From Bacteroidota bacterium (lineage in GTDB: Bacteria; Bacteroidota; Bacteroidia; NORP154): DNA of 64,000 nt. Location: contig JBDRNO010000260.1 of assembly GCA_043811005.1 (NCBI GenBank), positions 19,579 to 83,578 on the forward strand, written 5' to 3'. The notes under the pieces are model-generated. The model had not been told where the DNA came from. It worked only from the letters and a program-made list of their open reading frames with translations, and searched no databases. Made by a program: the position numbers and the translations under genes. Below, one piece after another: positions 10,560 to 63,161 of this stretch. The stretch's first letter is position 1, and each line of letters starts with the position of its first letter.

Positions 10560-10824
10560 TGAACATAATAGAGTAATTTTATTGAAAAACTTTAAATATC
10601 TCCCGCTAAGCATCCGCCAGCTGGCGGACATAGAACGCAATGATTTATATAAAAAGTAATATTATAGCGAACTTTGCGGGCTATGCGGGATAAAACTTTA
10701 AAATGCGAAGCATTGCTCATTAAGATAATTAATTTTATAGGTATTCGCGAATCTTACGATTTCACGATGGGTTTAAGTGCGGTATGCCCAAAGGTATGAG
10801 TAAATTCCGATACAATCAATTAGG

Positions 10825-21081: not shown

Positions 21082-23562
21082 TCAACGCAAAACCACTATC
21101 TTCTTTTGAAACAGAACGCCACGGCTATCCCCGATAGATACTATATATATCCCTTCCTCCCATCCCTTTGTTTTTATCTCGAATTCCCTGGAGTGTAATT
21201 TGTTATTTTGCAAAAACTTTTCGCAAACAATCCTACCGTTAACATCAACTACCTTTAAAACTGATCCGTTCACAAATCCGGCAATACTCGTTGTTTTAAC
21301 AACAAAGCTGTCTGATGCCGGGTTGGGGTATACTGCATAGACCGGGGCAGACCGCCAGCTGGCGGGCGCTTCGGTCTCAGGAATGGCTGAATAGATCGTA
21401 TCCCCTTTCATCGCAAACACATATTCTCCAAGAACTAATGAATCAATAATAATTACTCCAAATTTATCATAAGAATTTCCTGAAATTTTTGTATAATATT
21501 CATATTCATGCCAATTTTCAGAGGTATTCATCCTGTATAGCAATACCATGCTGTCTTCTGTTAAGGAATCGGCAATTAACAGGTGATCAAAGTATGAGCT
21601 TCCACTTTCCCTGCCATCGTAGACTATTTCTGCACTTGCAGAAAAATTATTTGGCAGAATGCCATCTATTTTCCAGTACCTGTTTGGTGAGAGTTTGTAA
21701 ATTGTATTAGTTACTATTGGGTCAGGTGCTGTCCAGTTATGTTCAACCCGGATAAAAGCCGAATCTGTAATTGCATTTACAGTAATTTTAAATCGTGCAT
21801 GACTAAAATTGTCAATCCAGGTAGTATCGATCACCTTTGCTTCACTTGATATTGCATCACTGATTTTACTATTCATATTAAGTGCTGTGAAAACAGGGCT
21901 GAATGGTAATGTAAATGTAAAAGAGGAAGTTGCACCAGACATAATAATTGTTTCCGTTTGCTCGTTCCAGCTAGTATCCATAAAAGTGATCTCAAGAGGT
22001 ACATTATTGTAATATGAAGGCGCTCCTGTTAATTTTTGTTTAACATAAACTGTTACATCATAATAAATGCCATTTGGCGTTATTTGAGTTGAGTTAATTG
22101 AAAAATGAGGAAAGCCGGGGTTGAACACCCAGTTATTAAAAAAATCAGTAAGATCAATGCCAGTGATAGAGGAAAGCTGGTTTCTCAGATCATAGCTGTT
22201 TATATGAGTGAATTGGTTATTTGCCAAAAAAGTGGTTAACCCACTAAAGAACAGTGAATCTCCCAAATACCCTCTTAAGGTATGAACTACATCACCCCCT
22301 TTATCATATACATGGTCGCCATAAGTATATTCATGCGGAATGCCGGAAATAGCCCTGTAGCCATTCTCGGTGATGTGGGCAAGGTGCAGAACCTTTTCGT
22401 GGTTTCTTCTTACTTCTTGCAGATATGTATCCTTATCATACACATCTTCCCAGAATAAAAACTCCGAATAAACGGCAAATCCTTCGTTCAGCCACATGTC
22501 TTCGGCTGTTTCACAGGTTACCATATCTCCCCACCAGTGATGAGAAAGCTCGTGCGCCATGATATCCTCAGCCCACAAGCTTCCATCAGCAAAGCTTCGA
22601 TGATAGGCAATATTAGTAGCATGCTCCATAGCCCCGCCAACAACAGGAACAAGGTTATACCCAATTCTGTCAAATTGATGCGGACCATAATATGTTTCGT
22701 ATACACCTATTGCATCGGTCAGATGCAAAAAGGAATTTTTGAGTTTTGTGGTATCAGAAGGTAAAGCATTTAACATTATTGGAATGGGTCCGTTAATACC
22801 ATTATATGATATATTTACAGTGGCATAGCCGGCAACAGCCACAGAAGCAAGATAAGATGGAATTGTCTGATCCATTTTCCAATGCCATATAATAGTGCTA
22901 TTGGGATTATGGACTGTATCTTGTAATAAGCCATTACAAAAAGCGTTTTTGGAATCTTCAGTAGTAATGAAAAATTCGTGGGTAGACCGTTCTACAAAAT
23001 TGTCAAAGCAAGGAAACCACGCCCTGCCGAAATTATGAGGATTCACTTCAAATCCAACACCAATATTATAGGCATATCCCCCGCTGAAATAAAATCCTCC
23101 TCCGTAAGTAGATGTGTCTATTTGAGGTGTTCCCTCATAATAAACTTTAACACTTGCTGTATCTCCAATATTCATAATGCCTGGAAGCATTGTAACAATC
23201 AAAGTATCATCATAGGAAAAACTTGCTGATTGATTATCCACCTTTATAGAATCAATATTTAATTTTAGCAAATCCAAACTGATAGAATTAATATTATTCA
23301 TTTTAGGGACAAAGGTAATTTCACAATTGCCCTTTATCACTTCATTGGTAAAGTCGGTGATGTCTAAATTGATAGTGTAGTTGAGTATGTCAATGGTATC
23401 GCTGCGACTGTTAGCTTCTTGGGTATCATAAGCGTGACACGGCTTAGAGCCGTGCCACGCTTTGTGTCTGCAACTGTAATAATTCTCCTGCCTGGCAAAA
23501 GCGAAGACAAAAGAAAAAATTAGTGTAAGGATGGTAAATGTATATAAGAATCGTAAATGCAT
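21082..23562 (-). CDS. secreted M1-family zinc aminopeptidase with a T9SS C-terminal sorting domain
   Basis: Signal peptide. HELSHHWWG…NEGFA gluzincin motif. C-terminus …PVYAVYPNPASDSFVVK… with a beta-sandwich tail typical of the Por_Secre_tail. Confidence 0.85.
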   Translation of the reverse strand: MHLRFLYTFTILTLIFSFVFAFARQENYYSCRHKAWHGSKPCHAYDTQEANSRSDTIDILNYTINLDITDFTNEVIKGNCEITFVPKMNNINSISLDLLKLNIDSIKVDNQSASFSYDDTLIVTMLPGIMNIGDTASVKVYYEGTPQIDTSTYGGGFYFSGGYAYNIGVGFEVNPHNFGRAWFPCFDNFVERSTHEFFITTEDSKNAFCNGLLQDTVHNPNSTIIWHWKMDQTIPSYLASVAVAGYATVNISYNGINGPIPIMLNALPSDTTKLKNSFLHLTDAIGVYETYYGPHQFDRIGYNLVPVVGGAMEHATNIAYHRSFADGSLWAEDIMAHELSHHWWGDMVTCETAEDMWLNEGFAVYSEFLFWEDVYDKDTYLQEVRRNHEKVLHLAHITENGYRAISGIPHEYTYGDHVYDKGGDVVHTLRGYLGDSLFFSGLTTFLANNQFTHINSYDLRNQLSSITGIDLTDFFNNWVFNPGFPHFSINSTQITPNGIYYDVTVYVKQKLTGAPSYYNNVPLEITFMDTSWNEQTETIIMSGATSSFTFTLPFSPVFTALNMNSKISDAISSEAKVIDTTWIDNFSHARFKITVNAITDSAFIRVEHNWTAPDPIVTNTIYKLSPNRYWKIDGILPNNFSASAEIVYDGRESGSSYFDHLLIADSLTEDSMVLLYRMNTSENWHEYEYYTKISGNSYDKFGVIIIDSLVLGEYVFAMKGDTIYSAIPETEAPASWRSAPVYAVYPNPASDSFVVKTTSIAGFVNGSVLKVVDVNGRIVCEKFLQNNKLHSREFEIKTKGWEEGIYIVSIGDSRGVLFQKKIVVLR

Positions 23563-24323: not shown

Positions 24324-24467
24324 TCAGCGTAGCACGGTTTAAAACCGTATCACGCATACAAAATTCATTTATGAATTTTAATGCAATTTGCATATTTTTC
24401 TTAATAAATTTATCTATTATGAGTTTATGTTTTATTATACAATAAATTTGCTCCTTAATATAAAATA

Positions 24468-26366
24468 ATGGAATTAATCTTTAAAAAATCTTGTTTAATA
24501 TTATTTTTGCTATTTGTATTTTTTTATGAACAAATTAGCGCTCAGCAATCTTTTTCATTAAAGATAACACCTTCCATTGCTGACGAACATTGCGATATCC
24601 TCAAAAGCATCCCCTATAATAATAAATTCCCAAACGAGCAGGCACGGAACAAAGAGCTTCGAAATTTCCTGTACAAACTATACGATAATGGCTATATAGC
24701 CGCCTACTTCGATAGTTTGACAGAGGATTCTGTTATTGATCCTTTTTTGAATGCTGAGTCACGCCTGCGTGCCGAAACATTAGACAGCCTGTACTTTAGC
24801 GTGCAGTCACGTGACTCCGCCTTCAAAGTATCGTCAATGCTTATAGCATACATCAATCCTGGTGGCATTTATAAATGGGCAACCATCAAGCCCGGTAATG
24901 TTGATGAAGGCATATTGAGCAAGGTGGGATTCCGCGAAAAACTATATAGCAACAAACCGATCAATTATAAGGAGGTGCGAAAACTCCACGAAAAGCTGCT
25001 GACATATTGCGAGAACAACGGCTATCCTTTTGCCTGGGTTAAGCTTGATAGTGTTAAGTTTTCAGATACTTTATTAGAAGAAAGCGTGACACTGTTTAAA
25101 ACCGTGCCACGCTTGAACTTAATTGAAGCACAATTAAACCTCGCAAAAAATATTGAGGTTCATATTGACAGCATCATCATAAAAGGTGATGCGAAAATAA
25201 CACCTGTTTATATCTACAACCACCTCGGCATAAAACCCGGCGACCTGTATGATGAATCCTTGGTAAGCAAGATAGGACCGAAATTAGAAGAGTTACCTTT
25301 TGTAAAACAAACCAAACCGTTTAAAGTTGTATTTACTGAAAAAGATACAAAAATAATCCTCCTTCTCACCGACAAGAAAGCGAGTATATTTAACGGAATA
25401 CTTGGTGTTTTGCCCAACAGCGAAACCACTGGAAAGCTGCTGATCACCGGGGAAGCCCGTTTAAAGCTATTAAGCTCTTTAGGGCGTGGCGAGCTTATTG
25501 ATATTGACTGGAGAAGCCTTCAGCCAAAAACTCAAGACCTAAAAGCCAGGTTTGTATATCCTTTTATACTATCATCACCTTTTGGTGTTGATCTTAAACT
25601 AAAGCTGTATAAAAAAGACACTCTATATTTGGATTTACATAAGTATCTCGGCATTCAATACCTGCTGAGCGGCACCAATTACCTCCAAGTATTCATCAAT
25701 AACAAAACCACCAGTTTATTAGCTAAGAATACAACTGTTTTGCCTTATGCAAACGTAAATACTATTATATACGGACTCGGATATAAAAATGAACGGTTAG
25801 ACTACCGCCTTAATCCTACAAAGGGATATCAACTCAACATAAATGCCGGTGCGGGAAACAAGACAATTCAAGAGACCAAGGATATAAATCCTGACAGTGT
25901 AGTACTTAAATCAACCGAATACGATCTTGACATTGATTTTGATTTATTCATGCCAATAAAAAACAGGGGGGTAGCGAATTTTGGAATAAAAGCAGCTTAT
26001 TTATCGAGTAAGTCCATCTTTGAAAATGAGCTGTTCCGCATGGGAGGAATAAGCACATTGAGGGGTTTTGATGAAGAATCCATGCTTGCTTCTGCCTATG
26101 CAGTATTTACTTTGGAGTATCGATATTTATTAGAGCAGAACTCTTATCTGTACTTGTTTTTTGACGGAGCGTATTATGAAAATGAATACAGAAGGATCAA
26201 TAATCTTGGGAATTGGCTTGATAGACCGTTTGGCTTTGGTGCAGGCATCAGTTTTGAGACAAAGGCGGGAATATTTTCAATAAATTATGCTCTTGGAAAA
26301 CAATTAGAAAACCCGATAATGCTAAAATCGGCTAAAATTCATTTTGGAATTGTTAACCACTTTTAA
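24468..26366 (+). CDS. Omp85/BamA-family outer-membrane beta-barrel protein (surface antigen D15 domain)
   Basis: Signal peptide. C-terminal beta-barrel pattern ending …IHFGIVNHF, with terminal aromatic residue. Confidence 0.6.
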   Translation: MELIFKKSCLILFLLFVFFYEQISAQQSFSLKITPSIADEHCDILKSIPYNNKFPNEQARNKELRNFLYKLYDNGYIAAYFDSLTEDSVIDPFLNAESRLRAETLDSLYFSVQSRDSAFKVSSMLIAYINPGGIYKWATIKPGNVDEGILSKVGFREKLYSNKPINYKEVRKLHEKLLTYCENNGYPFAWVKLDSVKFSDTLLEESVTLFKTVPRLNLIEAQLNLAKNIEVHIDSIIIKGDAKITPVYIYNHLGIKPGDLYDESLVSKIGPKLEELPFVKQTKPFKVVFTEKDTKIILLLTDKKASIFNGILGVLPNSETTGKLLITGEARLKLLSSLGRGELIDIDWRSLQPKTQDLKARFVYPFILSSPFGVDLKLKLYKKDTLYLDLHKYLGIQYLLSGTNYLQVFINNKTTSLLAKNTTVLPYANVNTIIYGLGYKNERLDYRLNPTKGYQLNINAGAGNKTIQETKDINPDSVVLKSTEYDLDIDFDLFMPIKNRGVANFGIKAAYLSSKSIFENELFRMGGISTLRGFDEESMLASAYAVFTLEYRYLLEQNSYLYLFFDGAYYENEYRRINNLGNWLDRPFGFGAGISFETKAGIFSINYALGKQLENPIMLKSAKIHFGIVNHF

Positions 26367-30121: not shown

Positions 30122-31453
30122 TTAAATGCAAACTTTAATAATATGTCTTACCCTTTCCCTCAGAATCAAATTTAATTCTGTTTGTTGCCTTCCATGAATT
30201 GAGGGATGACCATATAATGATTTCCGCATGTCAGCCATCCCATTAAATCCGGCAGACCTTTCCATAGCGTTTTTTAATCCGTCCCTGGCTGAAAAACGTT
30301 CCTGTGATATCATATAAAAAATACCCTTTTCGTGAAGAAGATCAGCGAGGTATTCCTGTTCAGTCTGTCCGGGGGTTGGAACAAATATTGCCTTTTTCCC
30401 AAGAACCGCCAGGTCCATTATTGTTGAGTAACCGGGTCTGCTCAATACCAATTTTGAAGAAAGAATTGCCTCCCGCATTTTGCTGGTTTCAAGATGGTGA
30501 TAAATTTCAATTCCAGCCCCACGAGCCCACTCGCTGCCCCCCTGAGTACTTGTAAAAGTGGGATTCTTGCGCTCTGGAACTTCCTCCCCTTCGGATTTTT
30601 TTTCAGCGGACGCTGTGGATGCCTTCAGCGGAGGGACTCCCCTCCCTTCGGGAGGGGCCGGGGGTGGGCTGTTGCTTTCTTCGGTTACTCCCCTGACCAT
30701 AAGAACTTTTAAGGATGCACTTTCCAATTGTTTCATCACAATTATTTCAAATATGCTTCGTTGTGGTTCAGGCCCTGAAACTATCACCATCAGATCGTAT
30801 TTATAATTACCCATAGACAAATCCTGCCCTTTCAGTGAAGGAGGATTTTTGTCGAGGTTATTATCAAAAAAATCAAATCTTGAAAGCGGACCAATATAAA
30901 ATGCATTATCCGGTAAAGGATATCCATGTGCCAGGTCTCCTGAAAGATTTTCACTTCCCTGGAAATCCGGCACCCAACATTCATTGTATTTATTGATAAA
31001 GAAGCGGCTTATACGGTGGAGGATCGGTTCAAGGAATTTCAAATTCTCCGGGCATTTCACCATTACCTGGTGAGTTATGAAAACAGAGTGTACGGTTTTG
31101 TTCCATAAACCAAATCTGTTGTCGGAGATGACAGCATCAATATTGTATTTTTTAATTATGGATTTTAATAAGGTGTGTTCTTTGTAAATCCCATGAAAAA
31201 TTTTGGGCAATGACATCATCATTTTCCGTTCCATACTGCTATTACTGGGATATGATATGCTGTAGCCGGGAAATTTAATGAACTCTAATTGAGGAAATTC
31301 TTTCTTTAAAAGTGCCAATGGCCGTTTGTCTGCACCTATAACTACTTCAACTTCGCTGTTGATCAATTCTTTTATTACCGGGATGCAGCGTGTTGCATGT
31401 CCCAATCCCCAATCCAATGGGCAGACCAGTATGCGTTTTTTGGTTTTACTCAT
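30122..31453 (-). CDS. MurG-like GT-B glycosyltransferase (GT28/UDP-glycosyltransferase-like) carrying a ~45-60-aa GC-rich in-frame insertion
   Basis: N-terminal …LVCPLDWGLGHATRCIPVIKEL… and the C-terminal nucleotide-sugar-binding region match GT28/GT1. The middle segment …TEESNSPPPAPPEGRGVPPLKASTASAEKK… is encoded by an atypically GC-rich hairpin-rich stretch. Confidence 0.7.
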   Translation of the reverse strand: MSKTKKRILVCPLDWGLGHATRCIPVIKELINSEVEVVIGADKRPLALLKKEFPQLEFIKFPGYSISYPSNSSMERKMMMSLPKIFHGIYKEHTLLKSIIKKYNIDAVISDNRFGLWNKTVHSVFITHQVMVKCPENLKFLEPILHRISRFFINKYNECWVPDFQGSENLSGDLAHGYPLPDNAFYIGPLSRFDFFDNNLDKNPPSLKGQDLSMGNYKYDLMVIVSGPEPQRSIFEIIVMKQLESASLKVLMVRGVTEESNSPPPAPPEGRGVPPLKASTASAEKKSEGEEVPERKNPTFTSTQGGSEWARGAGIEIYHHLETSKMREAILSSKLVLSRPGYSTIMDLAVLGKKAIFVPTPGQTEQEYLADLLHEKGIFYMISQERFSARDGLKNAMERSAGFNGMADMRKSLYGHPSIHGRQQTELNLILRERVRHIIKVCI

Positions 31454-31698
31454 ATAGAGGGGTAATTATAGTTTGTTTATTAAGTCGGTTATTTACCTCA
31501 CCCCCTGCCCCTCTCCTAAAAACAGTAGAGGGGAGAGCCAACGTGCAGGCTCTCCTCCGCCAGCTGGCGGAGAGATACAGAGGGAGTGAAAAATCTTAGC
31601 AATAAAATATCTTGTCTATTCTTTTGATTTTTCACGACTTAATACAAATACATTAAACTAAACGCGATGAAAGGGCATTTATTTCGACATTTTGCAAT

Positions 31699-31963: not shown

Positions 31964-32134
31964 AAATACATTTTACCAATATGATACAAGTCGGCAGTCT
32001 TCAGTCGGCAATCAGAAGTCTACAGTAAGAATTTTTTTTGCCGACTGGGGACTGCCGACTGTAGACTTGTCTATTAACACCAACAAAATTATCGTCCGCC
32101 AGCTGGCGGATGGTAAGTTTGCTTTTTAAAGAGC

Positions 32135-36966: not shown

Positions 36967-39900
36967 AAACAGGAAACAGGAAACAGGATCATAAATACCT
37001 ATAATATCAGCAACTTCAAAACTATCTGTTACGGTGCACCCCAAAGAATCTTCAATTACTACAATATAAGTGCCCCCAGTGATGCTGTCTAAATCTTCTG
37101 ATGTTGCACTATTTGACCATGAAAAAGTATAAGGGGGTGTTCCTCCTGTAACAGTTAAGTCAATTGCACCGTTACCTATAGAAGAAGAATCATCAGTTAC
37201 ATTTACCGAAAGTGAAATAGAACCGGGTTGGGTGATGGTTGCGCTGTCAATTGAAATACATTCCTTTGAATCTGTAACGGTTATTGTATATGTGTCTGCT
37301 ACGAGTTCTGTAACATTTTGTGTTGTTTCACCGGTTGACCATAAATAACTATAAGGCATTGTCCCTCCGCTTGTTGTGACTGTAGCGGAACCATCATTTT
37401 CTCCGAAACAACTAACATTTGAAACATCTGTCAAGAGTGATATTAAATCGGGCTGGATAACAGTTGCGCCTGTTATGGAAACACACCCGCTTGAATCAGT
37501 TACGGTAATATCATAAGTTCCTGGAGCTAAGCCGGTAATGTTTTGAGTTGTATCTCCATTAGACCAGTTATATGTAAAGGGACTTGTTCCTCCGGAAACC
37601 GTTAAGTTAATTGCACCGTCATTATCCCCATAACAGCTTACATCAGAAGTAACAGCAGTTAAAGAAGCAGCGTCAATATTGTTTATCAAAACCGTGTCTG
37701 TTTGAGTGTATCCCATGTTATCAGTAACTGAAACAAGATAAATTCCAGCTGTTAGCCCTGTAGCAGTTGCCGATGTTTGGTTTGACGGGTCATCCCATTG
37801 ATAGGAATATGGCGGTATTCCGTCTGTTACGATAACGGTTGCACTTCCGTCATTACCGGAACAGGTAGCATCTGTTGAGAATATGGATAATATCATAGGT
37901 ATGTTCTGAACGATATTAACTTCAAAATCATCAAAATAAAATCCGTCTTCCCTAAGGTACAGATCACTAACTATCCGGAATTTAATCAATATGCTTTGCC
38001 CTGCATAATCATCAAGATCTATCTCTTCCAAAACCCATGATGTTTGAAACCCGTCATAAAGGGGCTTTCCCTGGTCCTGGTTGCTGTTTCCTGTTGTAGT
38101 GTATTTGCCGCAAAGGGGTGTCCATGTGCTTCCCCCATCTGCTGATGCTAAAACCTGGGCGTAATCATATCCCAGTTCTATTTCCCATCTCGCCCAATAC
38201 GAAAGCCGGGCAGTTAAAGCATCGGTCAGATCAATGGGAGTGGATAAGGTAATGGAAGTACTTGAGCTATTCGAATAGTTACCTGAAGGGGAATCGGTTA
38301 TTGAACCGGAAGAGGTGTAGTATATAGAATTACTAACTCCCCACCCGGATGTTGATGTCCAATTCGTCATGGTATTGCAATTGTCGGTAAGGATAGTGCT
38401 GATCTGCCCGTATGTGTTAGTAATTGTGTCGGTATAGGTAAACAGCCCATTATCTACAGCGAGGACAAAACTAAATTGCTGTCCGTTTTGAATACTGGTA
38501 TCCAGTGAGAAAGAAATAGAGTCGTACATTTCCTCCAAAAGGGTTAAAAACGGATATGATTTGGGGCTTCCAACGCTTGTAATTTCAGTTCCCAGGGGTT
38601 GAATTTCAACGGTAAAGGTTGCCGGGCTGTCTAATCCCAGCCGTTGTATCTTAAAATTGAAATAATCGTTTTGCTGGTTGAAGATTGAAGGAGACAAGTC
38701 TTCTACTATTGAGTATTTGCCAACGAGGTGTGCAGCTGCTAAATTCTGCCACATATTGTCTTTGCATAAATCTATGATAGCAGAAGAAGGAGGCCAAAAG
38801 CCATAATTATCCGGTCCTGCTTCGGGTGTCATGGATATGATCTTATTTTTGGTGAATTGTTCTCCGTACATCCAATCATCAGTATCTCCGTTGGTGACAT
38901 ATCCTACTGTTTGGTCTCCTGTTCCAAAGATATAATCATTATCACGGGTCATGAGCCGGGCATAACTGAAAAAGATAGCAGAATCAGGAGTGAAGATGGA
39001 TTGCTCATAACCCCAGGGATATATCAACATATTGCTGTAAGTATGGTAGTTTAATGTTATCAGGATCTCATGGCTTTCACAAAATTCTCTTATAATATCG
39101 GTTTCCGGTTCTGAGAAAGGCCCCGTGCCTCTGTATGTCTCGTCATTTGTGTTTGGAGAAGACCCATCGTTATCATACCCCCACATATAGCCGTAGTTAC
39201 GGTTGAGGTCAACTCCGAAAGTGCCGTCACCGTTATTTCTCCTGTTTTTGCGCCACATACCGCCACCACTTGGGTTGGTGGTCCAGTTGTAGATATATCC
39301 GTCAGGGTTGATACAGGGGATGAAATACATTTCGGTGTTATCAACCAGATTGGTTACTTCATCGTCAGTGGCGTAGTTTTCCAGCAGGTAATACATATAA
39401 AATATCATCTGAGATATTGATGCGGGCTCCCTTGCGTGATGAAGTGCCGTGTAAAGCACCTCGGGTTCCGGTTCATTAATGGAGGGATTGTCTGATATTT
39501 TGACCCAGTAGATGGGTCTTCCTTCGATGGTGGTATTTGTTCCGATCTGTTGCCTAACGGTTATAATGGTTGGAAATTTGTATGCCATTGAGTCCAAATG
39601 GTCCAGCATCTCCTGGTAAGTGAAATATCCCCCCATTGATCCGAGGGTAAAGTTATCAGGAACAGGATAATCAACGCCAGAAGAGCAGCCATCTGAAAAA
39701 CGTTTTTTTTTTGAAGATTTTTTATTGGTTGGCTCTCCCTCTCCGCCATCTGGCGTAAGGTCAGGGGTTGTGCTTGTGTCGTTCTGTCTTTGGTAATGCT
39801 CTACTACGTCATCAATCAGGACATCATACTTAAAACCGTTTGATTTGATAAGCTCTATCTCTTTATATGAAAAGTCAGATATAAAGAAAACACCTTTTTT

Positions 39901-43835: not shown

Positions 43836-43936
43836 AATGCAGGTTTAGGGTTAAATAAATGTAGTATAGTAGAGACGAGGCATCAGCCATCTGTCGGACA
43901 AATTGCCTCGTCTATAAAACTCCAAACAATAATAAT

Positions 43937-51947: not shown

Positions 51948-52024
51948 CTAGAATAAGGTCATTAAAAAAGTCGTTAATGATAATTTTGTTGATGTAAATA
52001 AACAAGTAGGCAGTTGGCAGTCGG

Positions 52025-52058
52025 CAAAAAATTAATAAAAAGAGCTAATAAATAGCTC
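52025..52058 (-). terminator. Putative intrinsic terminator of anmK (hairpin overlapping its stop codon)
   Basis: On the minus strand reads GAGCTA-TTTAT-TAGCTC followed by TTTTTATTAATTTTTT. Confidence 0.4.
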
Positions 52059-53166
52059 CTCCAATATTATCTTTCAAAGCGCCTGTAACAGATTTTAAAC
52101 AATTAATTTCATTCCGCATTCTCAAAACACCTAAGAAAGCAAAAATCAACGCTTCCTTGAAATCAATAATGTTTTTTTCAGGAATTATGATTTGATAGTT
52201 TGAAAGGGCTTTTATCCTGTTAATTAATAAAACATTATACACTCCTCCGCCTGTGATTAACATTCGGCAGTTAACAGCGGACGATTGACTGATTTTATTG
52301 ATTTGAACAGCAATATGTTCACAAACAGTTCTCAGTTTGTCTCTTACTGGAATATCGTATTTTTCTATGACAGGAAAAAAAAATCCGGTACACCATTCTT
52401 TACTGAGTGATCTAGGTGGGGATTTTTGGTAAAAGGAAATCTGGTTTAATTCTTTGAGCAAGTCATTATTAATTTTTCCTGACGCAGCAATATTACCTTT
52501 GTCATCATAATCTATCCCTTCTGTATTCAACTTATCAGGGATTTCTTTCACCAATTTATTCAGAACAATGTTCACCGGGCAAATGTCGAATGCAATTCTT
52601 TTTCCATCTTTATCAAAAGAAACATTTGCAAATCCACCTAAATTAAGGCATAAATCGTATTCAGGAAAAAGCAGCTTATCGCCAACAGGTACTAATGGCG
52701 CTCCTTGCCCGCCAAGAGCAACATCCAATGACCTGAAATCGCAAACAACAGGCAGGTTACACTTTGCTGTAATGGCTGCACCATCGCCAATTTGGGATGT
52801 TACTCCGAATGAGCTATGCACGGCAGAGCGGGCAGTTTTACCCGGCTGATGAAAAACCGTATGCCCGTGTGACGAAATAAAATCAACGTTTAAATTGTTT
52901 TCATTGATAAAATTGTTGGTGATGCCACCTAAGTAATGGCCGAATTCTACATGGGTTTGAACAAATTTTAATGCGTTTTGTAATTCTAAATTCTGTAGCT
53001 TTTTAATCCATTTGCTGTTGTATTTAATCGTCTTTGCTTCAACTATCTCATATCTCCATTCACTATTATCATTCAATCTGCTAAACCGGCAATATGCCAT
53101 GTCCACTCCATCTAATGAAGTACCTGACATTAAACCAATTACATTATATTGTTTTGTTGAACCCAT
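52045..53166 (-). CDS. anmK: anhydro-N-acetylmuramic acid kinase
   Basis: MGSTKQYNVIGLMSGTSLDGVDMAYC… is the AnmK N-terminal signature. Confidence 0.88.
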   Translation of the reverse strand: MGSTKQYNVIGLMSGTSLDGVDMAYCRFSRLNDNSEWRYEIVEAKTIKYNSKWIKKLQNLELQNALKFVQTHVEFGHYLGGITNNFINENNLNVDFISSHGHTVFHQPGKTARSAVHSSFGVTSQIGDGAAITAKCNLPVVCDFRSLDVALGGQGAPLVPVGDKLLFPEYDLCLNLGGFANVSFDKDGKRIAFDICPVNIVLNKLVKEIPDKLNTEGIDYDDKGNIAASGKINNDLLKELNQISFYQKSPPRSLSKEWCTGFFFPVIEKYDIPVRDKLRTVCEHIAVQINKISQSSAVNCRMLITGGGVYNVLLINRIKALSNYQIIIPEKNIIDFKEALIFAFLGVLRMRNEINCLKSVTGALKDNIGGAIY

Positions 53167-58714: not shown

Positions 58715-59476
58715 TTATTGCAGGAAAGGATTGTTTTTCCTTTCAAATCCCATATTCGTTACAGGTCCATGTCCTGAGTACACCTGGAAATCATCTCCCA
58801 GGGCGAACAATTTGGTTTTGATGTTTTCAATTAAAGTATTATGATCGCCCCCCGGCAGGTCTGTTCTGCCAATGCTGCCGTAAAATAAAACATCTCCCGT
58901 AATGACGAACTTTTGTTCTCTTTCGTAAGAAGCGCTTGTAGAGACATTCTTGAAAGTCCTATCTTCCGCCAATCCAAATGACTCCCGGCTCATTTGCGGA
59001 GACGGATAGTTTCTTCGTGGAGCGTTATAACCAACAAGAACAATGTGACCCGGAGAATGACCGGGGATCAACAAAATCTCTAATTTTGAATTACCAAATT
59101 CAACAATATCTCCTTGGTTGAGGAAATTAACCGGATCTGGAGAATTTTCCAAGTTTGGAATTCCATATAATTGAGCTACAGAAGCAACGCTTTGCAAAAC
59201 AGGCAATTCCAACTTGTTTATTTCCAAATCCAAATCGTATTTTTCGGCAATAAACTGGTTCCCGAAAACGTGGTCAATATGGCAATGAGTGTTCACCAAT
59301 TTAACCGGTTTTAGCTCATTTTCCTCGATAAAGCCAGTTAATTCCTGTTTTTCATGCTTTTCATAACAACCAGGGTCAATAATTACACACTCTTTGGTCT
59401 CATCAAATAAAACGTACGTGTTTTCCTCGAAAGGGTTGAATATGAATGGATGGATATTAATCATAACTAATGACAA
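58715..59476 (-). CDS. MBL-fold metallo-hydrolase with a ~37-aa insertion
   Basis: HCHIDHV (HxHxDH) and …GDVLFYGSIGRTDLPGG… motifs. An extra segment sits between …PGHSPGHIVLV… and …ITGDVLF…. Confidence 0.75.
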   Translation of the reverse strand: MSLVMINIHPFIFNPFEENTYVLFDETKECVIIDPGCYEKHEKQELTGFIEENELKPVKLVNTHCHIDHVFGNQFIAEKYDLDLEINKLELPVLQSVASVAQLYGIPNLENSPDPVNFLNQGDIVEFGNSKLEILLIPGHSPGHIVLVGYNAPRRNYPSPQMSRESFGLAEDRTFKNVSTSASYEREQKFVITGDVLFYGSIGRTDLPGGDHNTLIENIKTKLFALGDDFQVYSGHGPVTNMGFERKNNPFLQ

Positions 59477-59516
59477 AAGTAATATATTTAGCGAAAACTT
59501 GTTATATCTTTGTAAA

Positions 59517-62500
59517 ATGCGAAAATTTATTATTTTCTTTCTTTTATTTTTCAGCTTACATATTGTTACCGACTTTGCCGGGATGCATTTGTTTGCGCAA
59601 TTTTACAATGGCTCTCATCAGGAATTTGGAAAAAGCAGGGTTCAGTACAGGGAATTTTTATGGTTTATTTATAAATATAATAAGTATGATATTTATTTTT
59701 ATACTGGGGGAAAAGATATTGCAATATATACAGCAAAATCTGCAGATATGATAATTGAGGAAATAGAAGATTTCTTTGATTTCGGGTTGGAGGATAAGAT
59801 ACAGTTTGTCATCTATAATAAACTTTCAGACTTAAAACAGAGTAATATTGGTTTTGCTACTGAAGAGCAGTACAATGTAGGTGGAGTAACGCATATAGTG
59901 GGATCGAAAATATTTCTGTATTTTGAAGGAGACCATCAAAAGCTTAAACAACAGATCAGGGCAGGGATTACCGAAGTGCTTATAAGCCAGATGATGTATG
60001 GTGGTAACTGGAAAGATATGGTTAAAAACTCCACACTTTTGTCTTTGCCTGATTGGTATTTACAAGGACTTATCTCTTATGTTTCAATCGCATGGAATGT
60101 TGAGATAGAAAATCGTGTGAGAGACGGAATCCTTTCCGGAAGATATAAGAATTTTAACCGTTTAACCGGTGATGATGCTGTTTATGCAGGACATTCTATA
60201 TGGAATTTCATAGTTGAGAGATACGGAAAATCATTAATCCCCAGTATATTATACATGACAAAAACCAGCAGGAATATAGAAAGTGGGTTTCTGTTTGTTT
60301 TGGGTTCTTCTCTTAAAAACTTAACAAATGATTGGCTTGATTATTACTATAACAAATTTTATGTTTCTGATAAATTCAGAGAGTTTCCTGATAAAAACTC
60401 ATTGCTTATAAAACCTAAAGCCAATAGGGTTTACAGCCAGTTAACTGTAAACTCTGATGGCAGGTATGCTGCTTATGTTACAAATAAAACAGGGAAGTAT
60501 AGAGTATGGCTATTCGATCTTAATACCGGGAAAAAACATCGCATATTATCAGGAGGTGTTAAGTTGGAACGATTGAATGATTATTCTTATCCAATGCTGG
60601 CATGGCATCCTTCTGCTGATTTGTTGTCAATAATAACAGAGAAAAAAGACAGGATATTACTGACGTATTATACACTTCCATCAAAAAAAAAACATATCCG
60701 GCTATTTCGATCAGGCAGGGAAGTAAGAGAGTTACATCACTTCCAGAAGATTCTTGATTTTTCATATTCAAATGACGGGAAAAAATTTATCATTTCTGCT
60801 GTTCAGGAAGGACGTTCAGATATATTTGTTTATAATACTGCAACGAATATGTATGAGCAAATAACAAATGATATATACGATGATTTATATCCTATATTTA
60901 TTCATGATTCGAAAGAAATTGTTTTTAGCTCCAATAGAGTTAGTGATACAATAAGATATATCCATAAAGGATCCTTTGGGGAAGGTGGAGCAGGACACAC
61001 ACCACGCCCCCCTCTTGATAGAGTGGGAGAGCCCGCTCACAATTCACCCGCACAAACCATCCGCCAGCTGGCGGATGGGAGTATTAATATCAATACTAAC
61101 AACGCATTAAGTACCTCAACTGGAAAAGATTTGTTCATATATGATTACAAATACAAATCTGCCCTACCTGTCAACCTTTACCAAACCGAAGACATAAAAA
61201 TTTCAGCACAGACAAATATTTTACAAAAAATTACTAATACTCCTTTTATTGACGAAATTCATCCTGTAGAATATGACGATCTTCATCTAAGTTATCTTAG
61301 TATTAAAGATGGCATTATCAATCGTTACCTTGTAAGTTTCGACAGTGTTATCAGTCATATTGACACTATTGCCCATTACAGGGCCGTAACAACATCTTTC
61401 CCAATTACGAATTACTCGAGAAACATTCTTGAACATGATATAAATACAAAATCGAAAAAATATTCAGAGATAATTTATTCTAATGGAAAGTATAGGATGT
61501 ATGTGGAAAATATATTGCAGCAATCAGATATTAAAATATCTGAATCCGGTGAAAATAAAATACCCCCCAGTGATGAACCATTTCACCGGGAGGAAATGAA
61601 TACTGCAATTGAAGATAGTTTGATTATCCAAAGATTCTCCGAAGATAACACTACTGATTTATTTGAGCGGGAATCCGAATATACCGATATTACAGGTGAA
61701 GGGAAAATTGACATAAATAACTATATTTTTGAAATTGAAAATTCCCCAGCACAATTAAGAAATAAAAAACCTGTTGAAAAAAGTAAAATTGCCGGTGAAA
61801 TGGCTCGCGAAGAAGACGGGATTAGTTCAAAAATCAAGGAAACTGAGTTGATTCCAGTAGACACTACATCCACTGATAATTTTGAAATTTCAGATACATC
61901 TGATCTTTCCTCCGTTTCACAGGATAGAACATCTCAATTTTTCCCTGACATTTTCAAACAAGCAAAACAGTGGAATTATAACATAGCATTTTCAACAGAT
62001 TATTTTGTGAGCCAGCTTGACAATAGTTATCTTAATGAAACATATCAGAAATTTTCCGGGGGTGGCGCTATCTTTACTAATCCGGGATTAAATTTATTGT
62101 TTAAGATAGGCATCAGCGATTTGTTTGAAGACTACAAGATTGTAGGTGGTGTTCGTTTATCTGGCAATCTGAACAGCAATGAGTACTTTTTAAGCTTTGA
62201 GAACCTAAAAAAACGTCTTGATAAGCAGATCGTATTCCACAGGCAGGGTTTTCTTACTTTTCAAAGCAATGGAACAGGGATCCGCGTTCATACTCACGAT
62301 ATTAAATATGTATTGAAATGGCCATTTAATGAAATAATAAGCATTAAAGGAACCGGTAGTTTGAGAAACGACAGGTCTGTTTTTCTCTCAACCGACTATA
62401 TGAGTTTACAGGAACCCGATATTTATGATACCTGGGGTGGGTTGAAGGCGGAGCTCATTTTTGATAATACTATCAATAAAGGATTAAATCTTTATAATGG

Positions 62501-63161
62501 GTCTCGCTTTAAGATCTTTGGAGAGTGGTACAAACAGCTTGATGAGAAGGAGACAAATTTATATGTTTTAGGGATTGATTTTAGGAATTATTTAAAAATC
62601 CACAGGGATATTATTTGGGCAAACCGATTTGCTGCAAGCACTTCGTTTGGGGAACAGAGATTGATCTATTATCTTGGTGGAGTGGATGGATGGCTTAAGC
62701 CTGCCTATGATCAATCACTTCCTGTTGCAAATGAGCAGATTTATGCATACCAGACACTTGCAACCAATATGCGCGGCTTTTATCAGAATGTGAGAAATGG
62801 CAATAGTTTTGCATTGATCAATAGCGAACTTCGCTTGCCCGTTATTAAATACTTTTCAAACAAACCACTTAAATCCGATTTTTTGGAGAATTTTCAAATT
62901 GTTGGATTTGCTGACATTGGAACTGCCTGGACCGGAAGAAACCCTTATTCGACAGACAACTCGTTCAATACTGATGTCATTGAAAAAGGTCCAATAACAA
63001 TTATTTTAACTCATCAAAAAGAACCGATCGTTGCCGGTTATGGCTTTGGACTGAGAAGCCGGTTGTGGGGGTATTTTATAAGAGTGGATTGGGCGAGGGG
63101 AATTGAAGATGGCATTCTGTTACCTCGTATTTTTTACTGGTCTTTAAGTTTGGATTTTTAA
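59517..63161 (+). CDS. large (1,214-aa) secreted protein with TolB-like beta-propeller repeats and a C-terminal beta-barrel-like region ending in Phe
   Basis: Start taken at MRKFIIFFLLFFSL (signal peptide). PD40-like repeat (…SDGRYAAYVTNKTGKYRVWLFDLNTGKK…). C-terminal alternating hydrophobic pattern …WSLSLDF. Confidence 0.5.
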   Translation: MRKFIIFFLLFFSLHIVTDFAGMHLFAQFYNGSHQEFGKSRVQYREFLWFIYKYNKYDIYFYTGGKDIAIYTAKSADMIIEEIEDFFDFGLEDKIQFVIYNKLSDLKQSNIGFATEEQYNVGGVTHIVGSKIFLYFEGDHQKLKQQIRAGITEVLISQMMYGGNWKDMVKNSTLLSLPDWYLQGLISYVSIAWNVEIENRVRDGILSGRYKNFNRLTGDDAVYAGHSIWNFIVERYGKSLIPSILYMTKTSRNIESGFLFVLGSSLKNLTNDWLDYYYNKFYVSDKFREFPDKNSLLIKPKANRVYSQLTVNSDGRYAAYVTNKTGKYRVWLFDLNTGKKHRILSGGVKLERLNDYSYPMLAWHPSADLLSIITEKKDRILLTYYTLPSKKKHIRLFRSGREVRELHHFQKILDFSYSNDGKKFIISAVQEGRSDIFVYNTATNMYEQITNDIYDDLYPIFIHDSKEIVFSSNRVSDTIRYIHKGSFGEGGAGHTPRPPLDRVGEPAHNSPAQTIRQLADGSININTNNALSTSTGKDLFIYDYKYKSALPVNLYQTEDIKISAQTNILQKITNTPFIDEIHPVEYDDLHLSYLSIKDGIINRYLVSFDSVISHIDTIAHYRAVTTSFPITNYSRNILEHDINTKSKKYSEIIYSNGKYRMYVENILQQSDIKISESGENKIPPSDEPFHREEMNTAIEDSLIIQRFSEDNTTDLFERESEYTDITGEGKIDINNYIFEIENSPAQLRNKKPVEKSKIAGEMAREEDGISSKIKETELIPVDTTSTDNFEISDTSDLSSVSQDRTSQFFPDIFKQAKQWNYNIAFSTDYFVSQLDNSYLNETYQKFSGGGAIFTNPGLNLLFKIGISDLFEDYKIVGGVRLSGNLNSNEYFLSFENLKKRLDKQIVFHRQGFLTFQSNGTGIRVHTHDIKYVLKWPFNEIISIKGTGSLRNDRSVFLSTDYMSLQEPDIYDTWGGLKAELIFDNTINKGLNLYNGSRFKIFGEWYKQLDEKETNLYVLGIDFRNYLKIHRDIIWANRFAASTSFGEQRLIYYLGGVDGWLKPAYDQSLPVANEQIYAYQTLATNMRGFYQNVRNGNSFALINSELRLPVIKYFSNKPLKSDFLENFQIVGFADIGTAWTGRNPYSTDNSFNTDVIEKGPITIILTHQKEPIVAGYGFGLRSRLWGYFIRVDWARGIEDGILLPRIFYWSLSLDF

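Follow-up and report, generated by a model that had tools for sequence, protein, structure and literature searches.

The mobile GC clusters of yeast mitochondria are GC-rich palindromic units in a very AT-rich genome, where they lie between genes and, occasionally, in frame within coding sequence. Cyanobacteria carry small dispersed repeats (SDR), which Elhai et al. in 2008 reportedly described as nearly palindromic sequences of 21 to 27 nucleotides (nt) that appear inserted in other repeats and hairpins. Rickettsia palindromic elements (RPE) are repeats found in frame in functional genes (Ogata et al. 2000, as reviewed in PMC10969869), intragenic repetitive extragenic palindromic (REP) sequences have been found in several phyla, frequently within genes for replication and repair (PMC3733652), and REP doublets forming hairpins (REPINs) are moved by REP-associated tyrosine transposases (RAYTs) (PMC3116915). 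The locus described here lies in a 64-kb stretch (the window) of contig JBDRNO010000260.1 from a Bacteroidota metagenome-assembled genome (MAG), in which a gene for a conserved envelope protein (59517 to 63161) contains a GC-rich block of ~111 nt with a perfect 22-bp palindrome near its 3′ end. We read this block as an in-frame, translated insertion of a mosaic palindromic repeat of the REP or MITE (miniature inverted-repeat transposable element) kind, and give this reading a probability of about 65%.

The locus resembles RPE in having short (~100 to 150 bp) palindromic repeats that lie both between genes and in frame in unrelated functional genes, with an added peptide that is compatible with the protein fold. 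Here, however, a GC-rich element lies in the AT-rich genome of a Bacteroidota MAG, not in Rickettsia, and only the 16- to 22-bp palindrome is demonstrably repeated; no conserved full-length unit or encoded peptide could be shown, and the likeness is functional, not one of sequence comparison. With REP sequences and REPINs the locus shares GC-rich hairpins of 20 to 40 bp that lie mostly 3′ of genes and in part within open reading frames (ORFs), often those of genome-maintenance genes, and that combine into larger structures. It differs from them in that the palindrome carries no GTAG or CGTC tag, forms no inverted doublets, and is accompanied by no RAYT among the scanned ORFs of the window. A further difference is that the identical 16-mer at the core of the palindrome spans unrelated lineages; REP sequences are, to our knowledge, specific to one species or genus. 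SDR are likewise repeats of well below 100 nt but differ in sequence, host phylum, and size (16 nt here), and mobility of the 16-mer is only proposed. The yeast GC clusters are organellar, belong to an unrelated host, and have no sequence relation to the elements of this MAG.

An in-frame, GC-rich insertion in an envelope protein gene

The host gene and the parts of its GC-rich block are as follows.

59517 to 63161, plus strand: host gene, whose ORF and translation give a 1,214-amino-acid (aa) protein with a signal-peptide-like N terminus, a TolB/Tricorn-like beta-propeller region, and a conserved C-terminal part that closes with ...SLSLDF
60968 to 61082, plus strand: GC-rich in-frame insert of ~111 nt (~37 codons) reading GSFGEGGAGHTPRPPLDRVGEPAHNSPAQTIRQLADGS, delimited by the GC island, the gap in orthologues, a loop of low predicted local distance difference test (pLDDT) score, and stop-free frames
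61007 to 61027, plus strand: imperfect hairpin 1 in the sequence, CCCCCCTCT-TGAT-AGAGTGGG, with the arms CCCCTCT/AGAGGGG of the hairpin at 31511 to 31539
61019 to 61033, plus strand: block TAGAGTGGGAGAGCC, a weak match identical at 14 of 15 positions to 31526 to 31539
61021 to 61038, plus strand: alternative hairpin GAGTGGG-AGAG-CCCGCTC, picked in the minimum-energy RNA fold
61057 to 61078, plus strand: perfect 22-bp palindrome CCATCCGCCAGCTGGCGGATGG, whose 16-bp core (61060 to 61075) is a dispersed repeat by sequence, repeat search, and BLASTN

The ORF extends from 59394 to 63161, and its likeliest start is the ATG at 59517 (MRKFIIFFLLFF...), the first after the signal-peptide-like start; read from there, the protein has the 1,214 aa that the first-pass annotation of this DNA had assigned to it. 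A profile scan matched PD40 and TolB-type domains in the protein. A total of 2,636 homologues of ~1,065 to 1,160 aa with Tricorn_N/Tricorn_2nd/PD40 were found in Bacteroidota metagenome bins, the closest full-length homologue having 63% identity. The signal-peptide-like N terminus, these domains of the homologues, and the C-terminal ...SLSLDF suggest that the protein may be an outer-membrane protein, as it had been labelled.

Within the block, CCCCCCTCT occupies 61007 to 61015, TGAT 61016 to 61019, AGAGTGGG 61020 to 61027, and AGAGCC 61028 to 61033; CCATCCGCCAGCTGGCGGATGG starts 23 nt past AGAGCC and equals its own reverse complement. The frame of ORF 59517 to 63161 runs through the block without a stop as ...GSFGEGGAGHTPRPPLDRVGEPAHNSPAQTIRQLADGSI.... 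GC content between 60968 and 61082 peaks at 0.66 (50-nt windows), compared with 0.31 to 0.32 in the 200-nt flanks and 0.363 in the whole window. The first-pass annotation had reported a perfect 22-bp palindrome, an in-frame reading, and AT-rich flanks; all of these hold, and every string that it quoted lies where it had placed it.

Comparison with orthologues identifies the block as an insertion. Between the motifs DT(I/L)R and KDLF(I/L)YDY, the window protein has 54 residues versus 17 in the closest orthologue (63% identity), and the GC-encoded segment is missing in every orthologue of both alignments: 21/21 in A1, which holds 21 orthologues, and 43/43 in A6, whose 44 rows are the window segment and 43 orthologues. 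The resulting length gap of ~37 residues (111 nt) is the size of the GC island. Two syntenic relatives (L058 to L060, ~36 kb in total) have no GC islands and no palindrome copies. That the coding block is an in-frame insertion, as the first-pass annotation had proposed with an orthologue comparison in mind, is thus well supported: it is absent in orthologues, it keeps the frame without a stop, and the gene is intact downstream. In an AlphaFold2 model of residues 300 to 720 (mean pLDDT of 76.7), the flanking beta strands mostly score above 90, and the insert (segment residues 189 to 230) scores below 50 and has no secondary structure. The model therefore predicts that the extra residues form a disordered surface loop between confidently placed beta-propeller strands.

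Three of the six frames are stop-free in the coding block, and three of six in an intergenic element that carries the same palindrome (described below), compared with 1.3 of six for random 115-nt windows from the same genome. Because the insert is GC-rich and half of its frames are open, it can be read through; a GC-rich element in an AT-rich genome seldom brings stops, so that a length divisible by three and a loop site would be enough for the gene to survive.

The source of the sequence is a MAG (the identical protein to a glycosyltransferase of the window, P0121, is on record as 'MAG: glycosyltransferase [Bacteroidota bacterium]'), and assemblers can be misled by palindromic repeats. An assembly or binning artefact, such as a chimeric join at the repeated palindrome, is nevertheless very improbable, given that both flanks belong to the same gene in the right order, that the frame is kept for 700 further conserved residues, that gene order is normal at other copies (secY with its next gene; feoB), and that the 16-mer occurs in assemblies from many projects.

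The host protein has a second lineage-specific extra segment at 61137 to 61200 (residues ~541 to 561, ...SALPVNLYQTEDIKISAQTNI...). This segment is AT-rich and not a GC-rich element, and it too has low AlphaFold confidence (segment residues 250 to 266).

Relation to the intergenic composite element

The element with which the coding block was compared lies upstream of the glycosyltransferase gene.

31495 to 31591, plus strand: intergenic composite element with three hairpins and the terminal stem CTCACCCCCTG/CAGAGGGAGTG, recognised by RNA folding and a profile match of its left module, and absent in the relative L061

Its hairpins, which form whether it is folded as RNA or as DNA, are CCCCTCT/AGAGGGG, GGAGAGCC/GGCTCTCC, and the palindrome, enclosed by an imperfect terminal stem of 11 nt. 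The element folds at -49.9 kcal/mol (z = -6.1), whereas the fold of the coding block is only modestly better than that of shuffles (z = -2.1). Three modules are collinear in both: the 7-mer CCCCTCT, then TAGAG(T)GGGAGAGCC (14/15 with 31526 to 31539), then the palindrome. What the coding block has in common with the intergenic element is thus the palindrome and, in an unchanged order, a hairpin module of weak similarity. The TAGAG(T)GGGAGAGCC match was equalled in 7/2000 dinucleotide shuffles, a figure that applies to the two upstream segments only. The coding block is without the second arm, GGCTCTCC, of the GGAGAGCC...GGCTCTCC hairpin and without the closing stem, and ~55 nt of it have no match in the window.

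The first-pass annotation had called the block a full-length copy of the element at 31508 to 31571. This description does not hold, since only the 16-mer, the 14/15 block, and the 7-mer align, and hairpin 2 and the closing stem are missing. The BLASTN comparison with the 31.5-kb element that it had suggested recovers the palindrome, and beyond the core it yields only a match at E = 2.2, which comes close to no significant similarity outside the 16 bp. Its broader claim, that one family occupies both coding and noncoding sites, is correct for the 16-bp palindrome, with which other in-gene GC blocks at 30512 to 30703 and 39727 to 39781 agree, but not for the full element. A sequence related to the 61019 to 61033 block, GAGAGGGAGAGCC, lies on the minus strand at 39731 to 39743.

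Palindrome copies in the window

Two copies of the palindrome stand alone.

10613 to 10628, no strand assigned: solo copy of the 16-bp palindrome; it lies 54 nt downstream of secY and matches the coding copy at 18/18 positions
32095 to 32110, no strand assigned: solo palindrome, 25 nt downstream of the feoB stop and abutting the repeat at 32050 to 32093; best match to the coding copy (20/20), hairpin z = -3.5

The 16-mer TCCGCCAGCTGGCGGA (TCCGCCNNNNGGCGGA) has four exact copies in the 64 kb, at 10613, 31556, 32095, and 61060, and degenerate copies at 21351, 39742, 43883, and 55872; the expectation from shuffles is 0.03 matches at <=3 mismatches. By BLASTN, the coding copy (61060 to 61075) matches 32095 to 32114 over 20/20 positions, 10611 to 10628 over 18/18, and 31556 over 16/16. 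The flanks of the four exact copies differ and carry neither a GTAG nor a CGTC tag. The degenerate palindrome at 21351, in an aminopeptidase linker, was considered as a further coding-site copy and was not counted, as it showed no clear insertion relative to 14 homologues.

It is possible that the coding block was built stepwise, from an older, lineage-specific GC-rich insertion or loop expansion (60968 to 61056) unrelated to the intergenic element, to which the 16- to 22-bp palindrome was added later as a tiny unit. The coding palindrome is closer to the solo copies at 32095 and 10613 than to the copy in the composite, solo palindromes exist independently, and the 16-mer stands alone in AT-rich flanks in ~100 metagenome contigs among the matches listed. 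Similarly, a viral contig carries a hairpin repeat three times, with a TTCG loop in two of the paralogues and the 16-mer in place of the apex in the third, and the GC block in the glycosyltransferase gene looks stacked from several hairpin pieces. Yet the GC island at 60968 to 61082 is continuous, its ~111 nt make up the entire length difference from the orthologues, and its modules are collinear with those of the intergenic composite. We consider a stepwise origin unlikely, and prefer entry of the block as one mosaic repeat.

The positions of the solo copies just 3′ of secY and feoB are terminator-like, and those at 43883 and 55872, which are degenerate, form the tips of longer hairpins that follow genes. 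The hairpins might thus be kept for a function in cis, as pause or terminator signals, RNA-stability or processing signals, or recombination or protein-binding sites, in which case the palindrome would be functional and not selfish. The exact sequence is also kept across unrelated low-GC contigs, with variation concentrated in four loop bases. However, most copies have no following T-run, copies lie inside housekeeping ORFs in three different frames, Rfam has no matching family, the fold of the coding block is modest, and orthologues work without the block. A cis function is accordingly an improbable explanation compared with insertion of a mosaic repeat.

Several other repeats lie near palindrome copies or share their form. 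A repeat, TTTTTTGCCGACTG..GACTGCC.ACTG...CAACAAAATTATC, is present downstream of feoB (31989 to 32093) and, inverted, downstream of ORF 52045 to 53166 (51979 to 52026). Within the 32-kb copy is a 33-nt inverted repeat, and this copy adjoins the palindrome at 32095; the 52-kb copy is without the palindrome. When 32050 to 32093 and its paralogue at 51979 to 52022 were compared as a filled and an empty site, similarity simply stopped at the junction. A hairpin headed by GTAG, GTAGAGACGAGGCA...TGCCTCGTCT, follows ssb at 43860 to 43920, and its apex, TCAGCCATCTGTCGGA, resembles a degenerate palindrome. The relative L061 carries, at a different locus (1455 to 1498), GTAGGGACGAGGCATGCCTCGTCCC with no insert at the apex. 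In this lineage the GTAG-headed hairpin thus has the look of a classic REP family of the GTAG type. A second palindromic family, AAGCGTGACACGGCTTAGAGCCGTGCCACGCTT and variants, has three copies (23430 to 23462, 24325 to 24357, and 25082 to 25114), of which one is in the N-terminal part of an aminopeptidase ORF, one right after a stop codon, and one inside the BamA-like ORF 24468 to 26366.

Other in-gene GC blocks and a hairpin and G-tract motif

GC-rich blocks were also found in two other genes.

30512 to 30703, minus strand: GC-rich block in a glycosyltransferase gene, with CCCCTCCC-TTCG-GGAGGGG and then CCGGGGGTGGGCT, recognised by comparison with a relative
39727 to 39781, minus strand: degenerate composite GGCTCTCC-CTC-TCCGCCATCTGGCGTA in the N-terminal linker of a 1,053-aa M14 peptidase/SprB-repeat protein, with a 25-nt match to 31548 to 31569 (E = 0.039)

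The glycosyltransferase gene (30122 to 31453, minus strand) encodes 443 aa versus ~340 to 400 aa in homologues. Between GTAACCGAAGAAA and ATTGA(A/G)ATTTA, the window has 165 GC-rich nt where the relative L061, which comes from run ERR10503153, has 66 unrelated AT-rich nt (flanks ~95% identical). The intergenic composite of the window has no GC-rich counterpart in L061, whose sequence was inspected over the 180 nt upstream of the gene. Since L061 has neither the block nor the intergenic element, the GC-rich modules were gained or turned over recently in the lineage of the window. The L061 protein (P0122), without the GC block, is still ~16 residues longer at this site than more distant homologues. 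The length of the glycosyltransferase thus seems to have changed repeatedly here, as at a hot spot.

Pieces of the intergenic element recur in three genes. CACCCCC(T/G)GCCCCTC is shared with 30652 to 30666 in the glycosyltransferase gene, GGCTCTCC...core and GGGAGAGCCAAC are shared with 39728 to 39755, and TAGAG-GGGAGAGCC and the core are shared with 61019 to 61075. Judging from these shared pieces, the intergenic element, too, is a mosaic.

On the minus strand, the left module of the intergenic element reads CTCCCCTCT-loop-GGAGAGGGGCAGGGGGTGAGG. When viral contigs were searched for the G-rich half, 33 loci came up (GC of 39% to 69%), and a complementary C-rich arm, which was not in the search pattern, lies 4 to 12 nt upstream in 25 distinct copies from 25/33 loci. 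The conserved viral unit in these phage-like contigs (L062 to L094) is CTCCCCTCTCC-(4- to 12-nt loop)-GGAGAGGGGCAGGGGGTGAGG, and several copies lie inside long ORFs, read as ...GEGQGVR... or ...PSP.GRGE.... A profile was built for nhmmer from a hand-anchored alignment of the 25 viral copies; MAFFT could not align the variable loops. This profile matched 31495 to 31536 on the minus strand at E = 2.1e-9 and the glycosyltransferase island (30636 to 30666) at E = 0.54. No Rfam family matched the window or 11 viral loci, and literature searches by sequence and by peptide returned no description of the 16-mer or of the hairpin and G-tract motif.

Proposed origin of the coding insertion

Under our reading, ~110 bp of GC-rich, hairpin-forming repeat DNA would have entered the coding sequence of the host gene at a loop between two beta-propeller strands, with a length that keeps the frame. 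The insert would add ~37 residues, mostly Gly, Pro, Ala, and Arg, as a floppy surface loop and leave the protein intact. Its 3′ end is a bona fide copy of the dispersed 16- to 22-bp palindrome, and its 5′ half would be related to the hairpin module of the intergenic element (31495 to 31591) only distantly, if at all. The hairpins are short and GC-rich, solo copies sit in terminator-like positions, and pieces are combined as mosaics, all of which resembles REP/REPIN and MITE-type repeats, which are moved in trans by way of hairpin intermediates. The elements would accordingly behave as non-autonomous repeats of this type, presumably moved in trans by an enzyme encoded outside the window, and their anatomy suggests that movement probably proceeds via single-stranded hairpin intermediates.

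Several observations weigh against this reading. The first group concerns the site and the machinery. The empty site is documented solely at <=63% protein identity, and a search with a 328-aa query around the site for a closer orthologue of the host gene found nothing above 44% identity. Unlike a MITE, the coding block shows neither terminal inverted repeats nor a target-site duplication at the ends of 60968 to 61082, judged by inspection of the sequence and the alignments. No transposase, Y1_Tnp included, was found in 16 distinct ORFs of the window (Pfam was run on 10 and NCBIfam on 7, with one ORF in both sets), and translation of the insert is something that we infer and did not observe.

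The second group concerns the repeat status of the block beyond its palindrome. Whole-window BLASTN of the coding block gave significant matches confined to the palindrome, the TAGAG(T)GGGAGAGCC match not being significant (E = 2.2), and it found no second full-length copy of the 110-bp block in the 64 kb. The nhmmer motif profile had no match at 60968 to 61082. A 20-mer from the unique middle of the block had no match in 2.9 million viral contigs, and a BLASTN search of GenBank phages with the block was negative; one weak match was obtained with the intergenic element. In 185,579 species genomes, the two-module pattern had just two chance matches, one in a LeuRS gene and one in an ORF of low complexity, both in genomes of the candidate phyla radiation (CPR).

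The 16-mer in other lineages

A metagenome scan found at least 120 loci with the 16-mer (L095 to L214), with 124 copies in the matches listed; a scan of viral contigs was complete (L001 to L055), and a genome scan found the 16-mer in two CPR genomes (L056 and L057). Among the metagenome matches listed, local GC (±300 nt) is below 50% for 100 of the 124 copies, and the flanks are AT-rich and mutually unrelated. This context is the opposite of what would be expected by chance for a sequence of 75% GC. In viral contigs, 12/56 copies of the 16-mer have a low-GC context versus 3/30 and 1/41 for two control palindromes. Neighbouring near-copies vary mainly in the four central bases, and in the 97 low-GC metagenome copies among the matches listed, A at -1 and T at +1 are the only enriched flanking bases.

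Of these 97 copies, 29 lie inside ORFs of at least 150 aa, where they read PPAGG (18), RQLAD/E (6), or SASWR (5). The ORFs that contain the 16-mer include SecA, RecG, SMC, TopA (twice), PolA, LeuRS, TrpRS, and TsaD. Relative to solved homologues, LeuRS and TsaD each have 4 extra residues and TrpRS has 3 (RecG was uninformative), and no rule of a fixed net insertion length emerged. Other copies lie between genes, and several metagenome copies abut truncated tRNA fragments (L117, L142, L111, and L208); ARAGORN predicted no tRNA across the palindrome, whether the 16-mer was kept or taken out, and the idea of a tRNA at the palindrome was dropped.

These distributions allow a tentative proposal, which we regard as rather doubtful at present: that TCCGCCAGCTGGCGGA is a self-contained, ultra-small, actively propagated unit common to unrelated lineages of low GC, namely this Bacteroidota MAG, phage contigs, and CPR bacteria (for example, Daviesbacteria and Saccharibacteria). 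Its landing sites would be the apexes of hairpins, DNA between genes, the neighbourhood of tRNA genes, and conserved housekeeping genes, and in genes it would add a few residues (PPAGG, RQLAD, or SASWR). The spread of the 16-mer may instead reflect a convergently favoured hairpin, a conserved binding site, bias in the sampling of the scans, or an unrecognised technical source.

Implications

The coding insertion is in itself an ordinary to moderately interesting case in a new lineage, a Bacteroidota example of the known phenomenon in which small palindromic repeats inserted in frame give rise to extra surface loops, one route to new protein segments. The GC-rich hairpin modules of this genome are recent, mosaic, and tolerated in at least three genes, which makes the lineage a useful natural experiment in the spread of such repeats and their accommodation by proteins. 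The part most worth following is the cross-lineage 16-mer, which recurs in many unrelated low-GC genomes, also within essential genes. If its recurrence holds in a complete census, it would point to a DNA unit of unusually small size that is mobile or actively propagated and for which no mechanism has been described.

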